Shown here one piece after another: positions 33,060 through 63,590 of a stretch of 64,000 nt of DNA. The notes under the pieces were generated by a model. That model had not been told where the DNA came from. It saw nothing but the letters and a program-made list of their open reading frames with translations, and ran no database searches. The position numbers and the translations under genes were made by a program. This stretch comes from a virus: IMG/VR virus record IMGVR_UViG_3300025424_000296, positions 1-64,000 of that record, one strand, 5' to 3'. Position 1 is the stretch's first letter. Each line of letters starts with the position of its first letter.

Positions 33060-34338
33060 TTACCACATAATCGACCAACGTTCGAATCCTAAGGGTAAGA
33101 ACTTACCAAATCGTCAAAAGTTCCTTAAGAAGGTGCGCAAGCAGCTAACCGATCAGGTTAGGGGTGCCATTGGCAAACGTAAAATAACCGATAGCCGCGG
33201 AGAAGATATCAAAGTACCGGTAGACGGAATAAATGAACCCAGCTTTGATTATGACAGAACTACCGGCGAATGGGAAAGAATACTTCCTGGTAATAAAAAC
33301 TTCAGTGTGGGTGATCGAGTTAAAAAACCACCTAGCAGTGGAGGCAAAGGTGGCGGAAGCGGGTCTGGTGGTAACGGCGGTGAAGGTCAGGACGATTTCC
33401 GCTTTACTATAACCCGAGAAGAATATTTGGATATTGTGTTCGAAGATCTGGAATTGCCAGATATGATCAAACGTACCGAAAAGGCAGCTACAATATGGCA
33501 TAAGATACGTGCTGGATTTAAAACAGATGGCAACCCCAGTCAACTAGATCTTGTACGTAGCATGAAGAACAGTTTAGGACGTAGACTAGCACTACGCAAA
33601 CCGTTAGAACGCAAGGTTAATGAGATACAGTCGTTATTAGAGGACAGTGATAATCCAGAACTACTCTTAGAAGAAATTGAAAAGCTTCAGAAGAAACGCA
33701 GTAGTATTCCCTGGGTTGATCCTATGGACCTACGTTATCGTAGATTTGATAAGAACCCTGTGCCTAATAGTCAAGCAGTGATGTTTTGCTTGATGGATGT
33801 TAGTGGCAGTATGGGTCAACATGAAAAAGATATAGCCAAGCGATTTTATTTGTTGTTGTATTTGTTCCTGCAAAGAAAATATGAAAAGGTACAATTGGTA
33901 TTTGTACGTCACACAGAAGATGCTCGAGAAGTAGACGAAGATGAGTTTTTCAACAGTCAGGAAACAGGCGGAACTGTTGTAAGTAGTGGATTAGAATTGG
34001 TAAACAATATCATAAAAGAACGCTATCCGTTAGATGCCTGGAACATATATGTGGTGCAAGCCAGCGACGGTGATAATTATAGTCACGACAATCAGGTCTG
34101 TACAGAATTGTTAAATGAACTACTTCCCAAGGTTCAATATTATGTTTATGCTGAAGTCAAAAATTATAATAATTTGCGAGAAATATTCATGGTGAACCCC
34201 CGACATTCCGGTCTTTGGGAAATTATGAACAATCTGATGCCTCGTTATGAACAACTGGTGAGTGTCCAATTAACCGACGTAGAAAGTGTAGTACCCATAT
34301 TCAGAAGTGTATTTGCCCGGGAGAAGACCAATGGTTAA
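33046..34338 (+). CDS. yeaH: YeaH/YhbH (DUF444) vWA-like protein
   Basis: K...NRQKFL, Gly-rich linker, FEDLELP, AVMFCLMDVSGSM, ETGGT.VSS, QASDGDN. Confidence 0.95.
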   Translation: MKMSDYHIIDQRSNPKGKNLPNRQKFLKKVRKQLTDQVRGAIGKRKITDSRGEDIKVPVDGINEPSFDYDRTTGEWERILPGNKNFSVGDRVKKPPSSGGKGGGSGSGGNGGEGQDDFRFTITREEYLDIVFEDLELPDMIKRTEKAATIWHKIRAGFKTDGNPSQLDLVRSMKNSLGRRLALRKPLERKVNEIQSLLEDSDNPELLLEEIEKLQKKRSSIPWVDPMDLRYRRFDKNPVPNSQAVMFCLMDVSGSMGQHEKDIAKRFYLLLYLFLQRKYEKVQLVFVRHTEDAREVDEDEFFNSQETGGTVVSSGLELVNNIIKERYPLDAWNIYVVQASDGDNYSHDNQVCTELLNELLPKVQYYVYAEVKNYNNLREIFMVNPRHSGLWEIMNNLMPRYEQLVSVQLTDVESVVPIFRSVFAREKTNG

Positions 34339-37195: not shown

Positions 37196-37837
37196 ATGAC
37201 ACAGATTATCACAGCCGACTATTGGCCACAATTTTTTAATCCTCCGATTGCTGGTCAACATACCGGGGCAAGATTTGCGTTTGCTGCTACTTCGCAATTA
37301 CCCGCAATGTTGATGACATTCTTTTATGATACTGCTACTAAATCAATGAAGTTGATGCAGTATGACGCTGCTAATAAATGGAACAGCAATTGGTATTTGC
37401 AAAAGGTGCCAGGATTTGGTCTTGCTGAAATACAGGATGATTTACCGCAGAATAATGCAGCCTTGAAGATACTATTTGGATCACAAATAATTGAACGTTA
37501 TAAAACGCCAATTGGTTGGGGTAATACAGAAACCGTCGGAGGTCAATACACTAACAAACCGCAATTTGATCTTTTCCGCTGCACCCCTCTGCAATCCGCC
37601 ACCGGCTTTCAAACAATTAATTTTGAACAGCTACTTCCAACATTTACCACAGCAGATGGGCAGATATACCATGATGTACTGGTACAATTGTATCAACAGT
37701 CCTGGGGATCCGGTAAGACTGCCAGCGGTGCAAGAATGTGGATGGCTAAGGGAATAGGGCCTGTGGCAAATCAGTGGGTTTCATTAACTTCTAAAGTGAC
37801 TACAGATAGACAAGATGCTACAATTACTTACTTTTAA
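37196..37837 (+). CDS. Hypothetical beta-rich protein
   Basis: ORF track; W.AKGIGPV C-terminal motif; TAAATA upstream. Confidence 0.65.
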   Translation: MTQIITADYWPQFFNPPIAGQHTGARFAFAATSQLPAMLMTFFYDTATKSMKLMQYDAANKWNSNWYLQKVPGFGLAEIQDDLPQNNAALKILFGSQIIERYKTPIGWGNTETVGGQYTNKPQFDLFRCTPLQSATGFQTINFEQLLPTFTTADGQIYHDVLVQLYQQSWGSGKTASGARMWMAKGIGPVANQWVSLTSKVTTDRQDATITYF

Positions 37838-37853
37838 TCAGTAAGGATGCAGC

Positions 37854-38129
37854 ATGAAACCAAAGAAATCTGAGTTTGATAGATTTATTAAAAGAATGGA
37901 AAAAACCTTAGACACATATAGAATATTATTAGAAGACGAAAAAACTCGACAACATGTAAAAGGTTTTCCAGAACCAAATACCAGTTATTTTGAAGGTTGT
38001 ATACATGTATTAATGAGTTTGCTGTTTTCAGCAGCAGATATTAAACGTAAAGAAGATATGAAATTGGCAGAAGAGATACTGGCTAAAAAAGAAGCAGAAA
38101 AAAATGTCACTGATTCAACTGTTATATGA
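37854..38129 (+). CDS. Hypothetical protein
   Basis: AAGGA RBS. Confidence 0.6.
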   Translation: MKPKKSEFDRFIKRMEKTLDTYRILLEDEKTRQHVKGFPEPNTSYFEGCIHVLMSLLFSAADIKRKEDMKLAEEILAKKEAEKNVTDSTVI

Positions 38130-38773: not shown

Positions 38774-39037
38774 ATGATCATGGAACGTACTGTTTTTGTT
38801 ATAGTTGCGTTTACTGTGTGTGTGGTCGCTGGCATAGCCGGTTATACTGTTAAGCAGGAATTTGCTTGGCAGGAGTTTTCAGAACTACATGAGTGTCGAC
38901 TGGTCCATGCAGCACCCGAACACATGACATACCAGTCATCTTTTGATACAGTTACCAAAACAATCTCACTGAAGCCAATTCGTGTTTCCAATGAAAAGAT
39001 TTACATTTGCAATGACGGTAACGAGTACATCCGCTAA
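38774..39037 (+). CDS. Small membrane-anchored protein
   Basis: GAGGAG RBS; N-terminal TM; two Cys in the soluble domain. Confidence 0.65.
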   Translation: MIMERTVFVIVAFTVCVVAGIAGYTVKQEFAWQEFSELHECRLVHAAPEHMTYQSSFDTVTKTISLKPIRVSNEKIYICNDGNEYIR

Positions 39038-53526: not shown

Positions 53527-54981
53527 ATGATATATGACCTACTAATTGTCGGCGGCGGAATTAACGGCTGTGCTATAGCAAGAGATGCAGCAGGTCGTGG
53601 TTTACGAGTTCTGTTAGTCGAACAAAACGACCTAGCAAGTGCTACTTCTTCAGCATCAACAAAACTAATACACGGCGGCTTACGCTATCTTGAAACATAC
53701 GATTTCAGATTGGTACACGAAGCACTAGCAGAACGTGAAATATTACTGGCTAACGCACCTCACATCATTTGGCCCTTGAACTTTGTACTACCTCATGCAA
53801 AAGGACTGCGTCCAAAATGGATGATCAAACTTGGTCTTTGGTTATATGATCATCTAGCAACACGTAAAACATTACCCAAGTCTAAAATGGTAATGCTCCA
53901 GGGTAACTGGATGGGCAAACCTCTTAAGAAAGAATACGAAATAGGGTTTACCTACGCAGATTGCTGGGTAGATGATGCTAGACTAGTTGTGCTTAATGCA
54001 GTTAATGCTAGAGAATATGGAGCGGAAATATGTGTAGGTACTCGTCTATTGAATGCTACGTCTCAAAATGGATCGTGGACTGCAACACTTAGTAATAGAC
54101 GAGAAGTTCAATCACGAGTACTGATTAATGCAGCAGGACCGTGGGTGTCTGAAGTACTTGATAATATAGAAATAAAATCTCATAAACATGTGAAATTAGT
54201 CAAGGGATCGCATATTGTAGTACATAGACAGTATCCGGGTAGTCATGCTTATATACTACAGAACAATGACGGACGTATTGCATTTGCTATTCCCTATGAA
54301 GGGGCATATACATTAATTGGTACAACTGACTTTGTTCATAATGATGCACCCGGACCTGTTGCTATCAGTGATGTTGAAACTGATTATTTGATTGAGTTAG
54401 TTAATCACTTTTGGGACAAACCGATCGCTCACAGTGATATAGTCTGGAGTTATGCAGGATTGAGACCACTATATGATGACGGTTCGGTAAATGCATCAGT
54501 TGTAACTAGAGATTATGCGTTTGACCTTAATACAGATTCTGCACCGGTATTATCTATATTTGGTGGTAAGATTACAACTGCTCGTAGATTGGCAGAACAT
54601 GCACTGGACGAGTTAGGCAAGTTTCTACCCAGTTGCGGAAACAAATGGACCAAGTCAGCAGCATTACCTGGCGGCGGTATAGATTTTGATAGATTTGTTA
54701 GACAACTACGTGAAGATAAACCTCTGATAGATTTTCACTTGTTATACAGACTTGCTCGTGCCTATGGTACACGAGCGTATGACCTATTAGGTGATGCTAC
54801 AACAAATGAGGATCTTGGACGAGACTTTGGGCATGGATTGACACAAGCCGAAGTTGATTATTTAATTGCAAATGAGTGGGCAAGATCTGCTGACGATATT
54901 CTATGGAGACGCAGTAAATTAGGATTGCACATGACTCAAGACGAGCAAGCAGTATTACGTGAATTTGTCAACAAAGAATAG
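53527..54981 (+). CDS. glpD: Aerobic FAD glycerol-3-phosphate dehydrogenase
   Basis: GGGING..IARDAAGRGL, TSS.STKLIHGGLRYLE, DDARLV, NAAGPW, GLRPL, GGKITT.R.LAE, DILWRRSKLG. Confidence 0.96.
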   Translation: MIYDLLIVGGGINGCAIARDAAGRGLRVLLVEQNDLASATSSASTKLIHGGLRYLETYDFRLVHEALAEREILLANAPHIIWPLNFVLPHAKGLRPKWMIKLGLWLYDHLATRKTLPKSKMVMLQGNWMGKPLKKEYEIGFTYADCWVDDARLVVLNAVNAREYGAEICVGTRLLNATSQNGSWTATLSNRREVQSRVLINAAGPWVSEVLDNIEIKSHKHVKLVKGSHIVVHRQYPGSHAYILQNNDGRIAFAIPYEGAYTLIGTTDFVHNDAPGPVAISDVETDYLIELVNHFWDKPIAHSDIVWSYAGLRPLYDDGSVNASVVTRDYAFDLNTDSAPVLSIFGGKITTARRLAEHALDELGKFLPSCGNKWTKSAALPGGGIDFDRFVRQLREDKPLIDFHLLYRLARAYGTRAYDLLGDATTNEDLGRDFGHGLTQAEVDYLIANEWARSADDILWRRSKLGLHMTQDEQAVLREFVNKE

Positions 54982-55036
54982 TTGACATTAAGTTATAAGG
55001 CACTATATTAAACATATAAAAGAAAGGAAACCGACT

Positions 55037-55225
55037 ATGAATAGATTCTTTATTACAACAACTCTAATGGTCGTACTTGCTACAACTTCGATCCCTAACT
55101 ATCTAGGATCTCTGATCGATGGAAATAGTGGTGGCTATCGATACGAAGCCAATGCTTCTACAATTAATAGAAAGCTGTCTTGTTTTACTCGTAGCTGGGA
55201 TGGACACACTACAGACTGTCTCTGA
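55037..55225 (+). CDS. Small hypothetical protein
   Basis: TTGACA promoter and AAGGA RBS. Confidence 0.45.
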   Translation: MNRFFITTTLMVVLATTSIPNYLGSLIDGNSGGYRYEANASTINRKLSCFTRSWDGHTTDCL

Positions 55226-55272
55226 GGTTAACAGAGTTTTAAAAGATGCTAGTATATATGAGTAATAAATGT

Positions 55273-55352
55273 TTCCTTGTAGCTCAGTTGGTAAAGTAGT
55301 GACTGTTAATCACTTAATCACTTAGTCGTTGGTTCGAGTCCAACCGGGGGAG
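55273..55352 (+). pseudogene. Degenerate tRNA-Asn(GUU)
   Basis: Anticodon arm AGTGA-CTGTTAA-TCACT, T-arm GTTGG-TTCGAGT-CCAAC; 8-nt duplication TTAATCAC, D-stem mismatch, three G:U in the acceptor, no CCA. Confidence 0.7.
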
Positions 55353-55412
55353 ACAAAATTAAATAATTTTGTGATTTGACTCAGTTACGTACATCACTTA
55401 TAATCATTGATT

Positions 55413-63176: not shown

Positions 63177-63368
63177 ATGAATAAGATTTTAATCACACTA
63201 ATAGTATCACTATTTGCTACATCTGTTGTGGCACTAACCGTCATACCGGCAGCAGTAAAAACTTCAAATGATGTTGCAGTTTCCAAACCAGCTGCTAAAT
63301 CCCACACAGGAACTTGGTTGCCACCAAAAGAAATACAAGACAAGGTTGCAAAAGAAAAACAAAAATAA
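63177..63368 (+). CDS. Small secreted protein
   Basis: AGGAGG RBS; signal peptide. Confidence 0.6.
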   Translation: MNKILITLIVSLFATSVVALTVIPAAVKTSNDVAVSKPAAKSHTGTWLPPKEIQDKVAKEKQK

Positions 63369-63382
63369 TATACTTTAAAGAT

Positions 63383-63458
63383 GCTGGTGTAGCTCAGTTG
63401 ATAGAGCGCGGCATTAGTAATGCCGATGTCGGGAGTTTGAACCTCTCCACCAGCACCA
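63383..63458 (+). tRNA. tRNA-Thr(AGU)
   Basis: GCTGGTG/CACCAGC, CGGCA-TTAGTAA-TGCCG, GGGAG-TTTGAAC-CTCTC, ACCA. Confidence 0.88.
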
Positions 63459-63463
63459 CCTTA

Positions 63464-63590
63464 GCCCTTGTAGCCCAACTGGCAGAGGCAGGAGACTTAC
63501 GAGAAAGGGTTAAAGCCCATAACGGTGCGATTCCGGAATCTCGGAGATAAAATCTCCCAAGTATCAGTTCGAATCTGATCAAGGGCACCA
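63464..63590 (+). tRNA. tRNA-Leu(UAA)-like gene with a 50-nt anticodon-loop insertion (Val UAC if spliced in another register)
   Basis: GCCCTTG/CAAGGGC-ACCA, D-arm GCC/GGC, anticodon stem GGAGA/TCTCC enclosing 57 nt, T-arm ATCAG-TTCGAAT-CTGAT. Confidence 0.85.

Follow-up and report, generated by a model that had tools for sequence, protein, structure and literature searches.

Self-splicing (group I) introns are commonly held to be the only tRNA introns of bacteria and their viruses, and protein-dependent tRNA splicing is regarded as a trait of archaea and eukaryotes. Here we describe a viral tRNA gene that may fit neither class. It lies at positions 63464-63590 of the stretch of DNA that we analysed (the window), which is the first 64 kb (64,000 nucleotides) of the 113,210-bp IMG/VR virus record IMGVR_UViG_3300025424_000296. 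The anticodon loop of this gene is interrupted by an insert of 50 nucleotides (nt).

The closest published relatives of this insert are the 'enigmatic' introns that Devoto et al. (2019, PMC6784885) described in the tRNAs of Lak megaphages; these have no Rfam match, and one of them 'may encode a tRNA'. What they have in common with our insert is the concept. Like the family described here, the Lak introns are anticodon-loop inserts in very large phages, lack an Rfam match and are conserved across samples. They are 79-93 nt long. In the Tyr and Phe introns (Table S6, PMC6784885) a canonical T-arm hairpin stands beside a long closing stem; as we read them, these two consist of a 5' leader of ~26 nt, an acceptor-like stem of 7-8 bp and a T-arm of the form GGTTCGAWTCC. 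The Lak phages have gut Prevotella hosts and a recoded genetic code. Our family is set apart from them by its architecture: it is leaderless and miniature, with a closing stem (P1) of 5 bp and a T-arm-like hairpin (P4) of 3 bp, and it has a core of its own (TGCRAWY, GAATC, AAR). The Lak paper (PMC6784885) offers no family model, splice rule or mechanism, and we found no paper in which a leaderless family of such small introns, with its model and splice rule, is described.

Group I introns also occur in the anticodon loops of bacterial tRNAs, for example in cyanobacterial and plastid tRNA-Leu(UAA) (PMC3984707). They share the host gene type, tRNA-Leu(UAA), with our insert, and both are presumably mobile. 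Group I introns, however, are ~200 nt or more in length, are built around a catalytic P3-P9 core, have a U-G pair at their 5' site and end in G. Our insert has 50 nt, no Rfam group I match and no terminal G, and the insertion point varies within its family. The bulge-helix-bulge tRNA introns of archaea and eukaryotes (PMC4090602) are short and protein-spliced, with structure-defined cut sites at several positions. Our insert differs in lacking the motif; no splicing endonuclease was found in the 113-kb record, and the hosts are bacterial viruses. A fourth system is not known to splice at all. T4 Pnkp and Rnl1 repair tRNA nicked in the anticodon loop, sealing nicks with 3'-OH and 5'-phosphate ends, so cuts that left such ends in an anticodon loop would make a substrate for T4 Rnl1. 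This pair is known only for counter-defence repair; an Rnl1 homologue is present in one of the phages that carry the intron.

We report that the locus and six homologues define a compact intron family, with a covariance model, a set of conserved nucleotides and a single splice-site rule. The family is too small for self-splicing by any known chemistry. Judged from sequence comparison, the insert is a well-defined and new form of the barely described phage tRNA introns. On a balance somewhat better than even, we favour the following reading: the locus is a functional short-arm tRNA-Leu(UAA) gene, interrupted between U34 and A35 by a mini-intron of a mobile family, which would be excised by enzymes that process tRNA ends, the exons then being ligated. 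If the predicted cuts and their sealing hold, phage RNA ligases gain a housekeeping role and the 'enigmatic' megaphage tRNA introns are explained. The family would also be an example of a selfish element exploiting tRNA mimicry.

The gene itself is recognized once an interruption is allowed. The Rfam tRNA model RF00005 covers 63464-63587 end to end (model positions 1-71; 44 bits against a gathering score of 29) and places 53 nt as an insertion in the anticodon loop. By default ARAGORN misses the gene; with introns allowed (ARAGORN -i) it calls a tRNA-Leu(taa) at 63464-63590 with a 50-nt intron and a full cloverleaf. Such genes escape default bacterial tRNA finders, which leads to under-counting of phage tRNA repertoires. 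All four stems are intact (acceptor, D, anticodon GGAGA/TCTCC and T), as is the ACCA end, and the anticodon-stem strands enclose 57 nt. The spliced form would be 77 nt long (unspliced, 127 nt). The insert is single-copy within the 113-kb record. The parts of the locus, as assigned by the analyses below, are these:

63464-63590, + strand: interrupted tRNA-Leu(UAA) with short variable arm and encoded CCA (Rfam, ARAGORN -i, exon homology)
63464-63498, + strand: 5' exon, comprising acceptor strand, D arm, anticodon-stem strand GGAGA and C32 U33 U34 (register test, covariance-model borders)
63499-63548, + strand: 50-nt tRNA-shaped mini-intron, a three-way junction without P3 (covariance model R1, 40.7 bits, E ~1e-7)
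63500-63504, + strand: P1 5' strand CGAGA, pairing with TCTCG at 63539-63543 and followed by junction AAG at 63505-63507
63508-63517, + strand: P2 hairpin GGT-TAAA-GCC in the 'D-arm' position, starting at intron nt 10; 3/3 modelled pairs covary, loop not conserved
63523-63535, + strand: P4 hairpin CGG-TGCGATT-CCG, T-arm-like, the invariant family core; its 7-nt loop fits UGCRAWY
63536-63548, + strand: junction GAA, P1 3' strand TCTCG and 5-nt tail GAGAT
63549-63590, + strand: 3' exon, comprising A35 A36 A37 A38, TCTCC, variable loop CAAGT, T arm, acceptor strand, A73 and CCA

Does the insert have relatives? Searching with a pattern drawn from the exon consensus, we met a clear homologue in G001, a phage contig of 134 kb in which three tRNAs share the core of the insert: Leu, Ala (with G3:U70) and Thr. 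We scanned the family core, A-YGG-TGCRAWY-CCR-GAATC, through IMG/VR. The further carriers, all in the anticodon loops of long-arm tRNA-Leu(UAA) genes, are a complete 455-kb genome (G002), a third contig (G003) and the sequence of G004 and G005; four different samples (L107, L109, L119 and L120, which include G004 and G005) yielded one and the same intron-bearing gene. The distinct copies thus number seven, the locus and six on five other uncultured large-phage contigs (G001-G005). Their host genes are short-arm tRNA-Leu, long-arm tRNA-Leu, tRNA-Ala and tRNA-Thr, and the family is apparently mobile.

Within the 113 + 134 kb of the source record and G001 the core is confined to tRNA anticodon loops, and ten other IMG/VR matches to the pattern fall in coding sequence, where we take them to be chance. 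At least 120 core matches occur in 596 Gb of prokaryotic genomes, about the chance rate; among the matches listed, one lies in a tRNA, where a phage-like contig that had been binned in a metagenome-assembled genome repeats the G002 sequence. In a blastn search against 50,697 cultured-phage records, neither the locus nor a larger intron copy had a match to the intron. Exact and degenerate scans of IMG/VR for the two insert hairpins, a 24-mer of the T-arm and acceptor and a 22-mer of the 5' exon returned 0 matches outside the source record. A c-di-AMP riboswitch match that spans the intron-bearing anticodon arm of the G002 tRNA-Leu (L104:7825-7958) scores 19.3 bits against a gathering score of 38 and was treated as chance.

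Structural evidence for the family comes from a covariance model, R1, built with a hand-written structure from two members on other contigs; the source locus was not included. R1 recovers the other five members with exact borders and nothing else below E = 0.1 in 399 kb. Its match to the source locus runs exactly from 63499 to 63548, at full length (40.7 bits, E ~1e-7). The seven sequences were aligned on the model, replacing MAFFT alignments that misaligned the 5' side. In this alignment, which is itself fitted to the model, so that its covariation must be read with that caveat, all 14 modelled pairs are standard in all seven sequences and nine have double compensatory changes. P1 is 100% paired, with double changes in three of its five pairs and an invariant terminal GA/TC. 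None of 500 shuffles reaches the observed percentage paired, the number of pairs or of cells with double changes, or the covariation score; the count of further pair types was matched by 1 of 500. Sliding the partners by one column halves the pairing. The insert is very probably a member of a real, conserved family of intron-like elements.

The consensus begins with one free nucleotide, P1 (5 bp, ending GA/TC), AAR and the variable hairpin P2. It continues with A, P4 (YGG/CCR, with the 7-nt loop TGCRAWY), GAA, the second strand of P1 (P1') and a 5-nt tail. Five members have an optional element between P2 and P4, a TAGAA-like sequence and a hairpin, P3, closed by C-G. P3 is absent from the source copy and its G001 orthologue; all the other family features are present in the source copy.

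The layout is that of a small tRNA. Nine nucleotides precede P2, and the D stem of a tRNA starts at position 10. From the 3' strand of P4 (CCG, 63533-63535) to the end of the insert there are 16 nt after the T-loop, which correspond to tRNA positions 61-76. Opposite the first base of the intron stands the first tail base, as G:A, A:G, G:G or C:G. The resemblance is one of layout and dimensions only, and by these comparisons the insert is not a nested tRNA gene: even the largest copy, a four-way junction, has no RF00005 match on its own at E up to 10.

A preliminary description of the locus, made from the letters of the window and its open reading frames, had seen much of this. Its intact stems and CCA, and the 57 nt enclosed by the anticodon stem, are what Rfam and ARAGORN -i also find. 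It took the insert for an intron-like intervening sequence, a view that the present analysis supports. Its three-way junction (a CGAGA/TCTCG closing stem with GGG..CCC and CGG-TGCGATT-CCG hairpins) is the minimum-free-energy fold of the insert. The folding energy is unremarkable (z = -0.49; equalled or bettered by 65 of 200 shuffles), so thermodynamics alone could not validate the junction; covariation in the six homologous inserts does. It called both hairpin loops T-loop-like. This holds for the second, with its conserved UGCRAWY; the loop of the first varies freely. It also pointed to a second GGAGA (63543-63547) that could replace the 5' strand of the anticodon stem. The sequence exists and can pair with TCTCC, and the alternative arm fold is in fact the best (-14.8 versus -14.2 kcal/mol). 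The 5-nt tails of the six homologues, however, are GCCCA, GTGAA, AAAAT, AAGCT, GCCTA and AAGAA, so this pairing is no family feature and a functional strand swap finds no support. We also rejected GGAGA as a target-site duplication, which would leave a 5-nt loop, and the DNA palindrome GATTCCGGAATC as a protein site, since it is not conserved in the homologues.

Where would the insert be cut out? We enumerated all registers for the seven members; the arithmetic in the preliminary description was correct. One register alone gives a 7-nt loop, U33 and the expected anticodon in all seven copies: the 5' cut falls 1 nt before P1 and the 3' cut 5 nt after P1'. The anticodons restored are UAA in five copies, UGC (in the tRNA with G3:U70) and UGU. 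This single rule holds although the insertion point in the loop varies, from 32/33 (G004) through 34/35 (five members) to 35/36 (G003), and we conclude that the splice sites would be defined by the intron's own fold. The group I insertion point in tRNA-Leu(UAA) is also U34/A35. The splice sites themselves have no conserved nucleotide, and a terminal G is lacking (the source insert ends in T). In tRNA terms, the predicted sites coincide with the 5' end of a mature tRNA, where RNase P cuts, and with the bond after position 76, behind the CCA.

As to the identity of the restored tRNA, the preliminary description favoured a short-variable-arm Leu and left the choice between Leu and Val to the splice register. 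When metagenome contigs were scanned for a 22-mer from the 5' exon, two relatives came up, L090 and L091. L090 carries an intronless 77-nt tRNA whose D arm and anticodon stem are identical to those of the locus and whose loop reads CTTAAAA. The intronless form matches 577 cultured-phage records, including KVP40 tRNA-Leu-2, which is annotated 'codon recognized: UUA'. Set beside L090, KVP40 and 6E35.1a, the exons of the locus show the same 77-nt length, 5-nt variable loop, 3-bp D stem and A73-CCA, and also the D loop AAYTGGCAGA and anticodon loop CTTAAAA that characterize short-arm phage tRNA-Leu(UAA). With KVP40 tRNA-Leu-2 (AY283928.2 173859-173935) they share the D arm CCAAYTGGCAGAGGC, the loop CTTAAAATCTC, A73, CCA and length. 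Unlike the locus, the short-arm tRNA-Leu genes of cultured phages are uninterrupted. UUA is the commonest Leu codon in the source phage (41% of Leu codons). By homology, then, the exons belong to the known short-variable-arm phage tRNA-Leu family. Because the intronless homologues read CTTAAAA and the exons match this family, the predicted register is Leu(UAA) and not Val(UAC); the arrangement CTT-insert-AAAA also fits the rule that serves all seven copies.

Several other inserts were seen in the course of these comparisons. L091 (2273-2401) is a short-arm tRNA-Leu(UAA) with a 51-nt insert at the same 34/35 site and with the same geometry (1 nt before the closing stem, 5 nt after it). Its core is different (P1 GGAC/GTCC, a 6-bp hairpin and the T-arm ATCAG-TTCAATC-CTGAT) and R1 does not match it; it is probably a sister subfamily. 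At L116:6608-6654, outside called tRNAs, the intron model has a weak match that stands alone (14-18 bits, E ~0.1; CCGG-TGCGAAT-CCGG) and may be a degenerate solo copy. G001 contains a fourth interrupted tRNA at 33663-33807 on the - strand (L096:663-807), with a 67-nt insert of a different type: a 13-nt leader, a 7-bp closing stem TGCCTTT/AAAGGCG stacked directly on the canonical T-arm TTTGG-TTCGATC-CCAAA, then CAAA. The exon border is again 16 nt after the T-loop, and the design resembles that of the Lak introns. ARAGORN calls this tRNA Trp, though its anticodon is probably CAT (loop CTCATAC).

Is the interrupted gene in use? The source gene and its intron-bearing G001 orthologue differ at eight exon positions, which form four compensatory stem pairs. 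The T stem has two of these, and the acceptor and anticodon stems have one each; all unpaired exon positions are the same. The introns of the two genes are ~70% identical (39 of 56 aligned columns). Since all eight exon differences are compensatory, they point to selection for a working cloverleaf and hence to removal of the insert. We consider it likely that the insert is spliced at the RNA level.

How might splicing proceed? The intron folds on its own into a miniature cloverleaf in which P1 stands for the acceptor stem, P2 for the D arm and P4 for the T-arm. Enzymes that recognize this tRNA-like top half would cut the pre-tRNA at both sites. Given the tRNA-like geometry, RNase P would be the best candidate for the 5' cut; the 3' cut could be made by an endonuclease of the RNase Z/BN or RNase E type, or by a phage enzyme. 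The resulting 3'-OH and 5'-phosphate ends would be held together by the anticodon stem, and a phage ATP-dependent RNA ligase of the T4 Rnl1 or Rnl2 type would seal the nick, giving the loop CUUAAAA. We propose this particular combination of RNase P, a 3' endonuclease and an Rnl ligase tentatively, as one possible route. Just as tentatively, large phages of bacteria may run a tRNA splicing system of their own, with a mini-tRNA disguise, excision by RNase P and a 3' endonuclease and sealing of the Rnl1 type. Such introns would form a third mechanistic class beside the self-splicing and bulge-helix-bulge types, and the mini-tRNA set free might itself be functional. Of the genomes with the intron only G002 is complete. 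It has an Rnl1 homologue (100 bits; G002 54477-55052) and three ligases of the Rnl2 family, and no RtcB was found in it. RNA ligases are common in jumbo phages (PMC7824862), so those of G002 fit the model without discriminating between the readings.

A number of observations weigh against the favoured reading. Besides the interrupted gene, G001 and G002 each have an intronless tRNA-Leu(UAA), so that an inactivating insertion could be tolerated. Restoration of the loop when the insert is removed is expected of any discrete DNA insertion. The tRNA likeness is incomplete: the 'acceptor plus T' stack consists of 5 + 3 Watson-Crick pairs plus unproven non-canonical layers, and the Rfam tRNA model does not recognize the intron alone. 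The strong conservation of the junctions could equally indicate a ribozyme or a specific protein partner. RNase Z normally cuts after position 73 in CCA-less precursors, not after 76, and the intron tails are not CCA, save for CCCA in one copy, which makes the 3' enzyme uncertain. Finally, Pfam searches of the 113-kb record for RtcB, EndA, Rnl1 and Rnl2 found none of them; the record is judged to be only 28% complete, so their absence says little. The suggestion in the preliminary description of a protein-spliced or novel intron is still the best reading as a prediction.

What if the insert is not removed at all? It could be a selfish mobile element in a redundant tRNA gene, whose product is a dead tRNA or a decoy tRNA-like RNA that draws, for example, anticodon nucleases or another tRNA-binding protein. 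The intronless tRNA-Leu(UAA) copies and the triviality of exact loop restoration speak for this. Moreover, LeuRS is independent of the anticodon, so that unspliced RNA might still be charged. Yet intron-bearing exons remain perfect cloverleaves with only compensatory differences, and the intron-bearing Ala and Thr genes are the sole tRNA-Ala and tRNA-Thr seen in the 134-kb G001 fragment. All seven insertions, besides, are in anticodon loops, the sole place with known cut-and-seal repair in T4-like phages. We regard retention as rather unlikely; the masked-anticodon decoy of the preliminary description, graded down by the compensatory exon changes, goes with it. More doubtful still is a new small self-cleaving or self-splicing ribozyme. 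Its active site would be made up of the junctions and the T-loop and would cleave the RNA on both sides of P1, perhaps also rejoining it; splicing would be finished by host RtcB or a ligase of the phage. The conservation of AAR, TAGAA, GAA, the TGCRAWY loop and the GA/TC of P1 goes beyond the apparent need of a shape mimic, and splice sites fixed relative to the intron's own fold speak for a ribozyme too. But 50 nt with two cleavage sites is below the size of any known self-splicing RNA, the splice-site nucleotides are unconserved and without a terminal G, P3 is dispensable and G002 lacks RtcB. The source copy and three larger copies match no Rfam ribozyme at E up to 10, including hammerhead, twister, twister-sister, pistol, hatchet, HDV-like and group I/II; hammerhead, hairpin, HDV-like, pistol and hatchet folds were also rejected by eye.

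Among established intron types, a bulge-helix-bulge intron of the archaeal or eukaryal kind, cut by EndA/Sen and sealed by RtcB, would account for the 50-80 nt size, the anticodon-loop site and a 5' site 1 nt before the intron helix, as in that motif. We find, however, no 4-bp helix with two 3-nt bulges; the best candidate, a 3-bp helix with bulges of 1 and 6 nt, is unconserved, and the 3' site is 5 nt after P1 instead of 6. With neither EndA nor RtcB in the 113-kb record and a phage that looks bacterial (T4 Gp34-type fibre, ClpX, DnaK, PrkA operon), this explanation is very improbable. A remnant of the cyanobacterial group I intron was rejected for its wrong size and the missing terminal G. 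The source insert has no Rfam intron match at E up to 10 and no group I core, and the preliminary description was right to set it apart from that class. Equally hard to credit is a mature tRNA-Val(UAC) that results from splicing at the canonical 37/38 site or close to it. Excision of 50 nt behind loop position 5 does give CTTACAA, and after position 6 or 7 CTTACGA, both with the anticodon UAC; CTTACAA resembles the loop of E. coli tRNA-Val(UAC), and GUA makes up 37% of Val codons in the source phage. But neither the intronless homologues nor the G001 orthologue can yield UAC, no register besides CTT-insert-AAAA suits the whole family and the tRNA body is that of phage tRNA-Leu. As for an assembly artefact or chimeric join, structured homologues were assembled independently in at least five other contigs and a neighbouring gene was seen on nine contigs from several sources, which leaves it a negligible chance.

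The source of the window is a very large tailed phage of bacteria with T4-like traits, judged from the genes that it encodes. The record, with a G+C content of ~36%, has a T4 Gp34-type long-tail-fibre domain and collagen-repeat fibres, DnaK, ClpX and ClpB, a PrkA/DUF444/SpoVR operon, a RuBisCO-like protein and a tryptophan halogenase. There are seven tRNA genes in the record, and every 3' end inspected has an encoded CCA. One of them lies just ahead of the interrupted gene:

63383-63458, + strand: tRNA-Thr(AGT), upstream of the interrupted tRNA and separated from it by 5 nt

Both genes lie behind a promoter-like site (63346-63374), and they are probably co-transcribed. The tRNA-Thr has an A34 anticodon (AGT), unusual for bacterial-type tRNAs, and the T-loop TTTGAAC. 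The tRNA-Asn(GTT) at 55272-55354 is, at 83 nt (ARAGORN), longer than the standard class I length and scores just 40 bits with Rfam.

A search for relatives of the glycosyltransferase gene that neighbours the tRNA locus returned only itself, and none of 80 halogenase-related loci has a comparable tRNA. Two uncultured megaphages of 630-640 kb, LR745206.1 and LR756502.1, share a PrkA homologue with the source phage. Their tRNA-model matches are over-long (124 nt at L088:725-848 and 103 nt at L089:172-274, respectively), and the inserts are unrelated to the mini-intron family. On its - strand, G001 has two further tRNAs by ARAGORN, a 92-nt tRNA-Ile(TAT) at 37804-37895 and a 78-nt tRNA with the anticodon TCA, a possible opal suppressor, at 38958-39035. 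Just downstream of the interrupted tRNA, a small open reading frame from 63670 on the + strand begins MKDRVILTTFLILILAMALVGCNS. Its predicted product has a lipoprotein-type signal peptide with a lipobox cysteine, which is consistent with a bacterial host.

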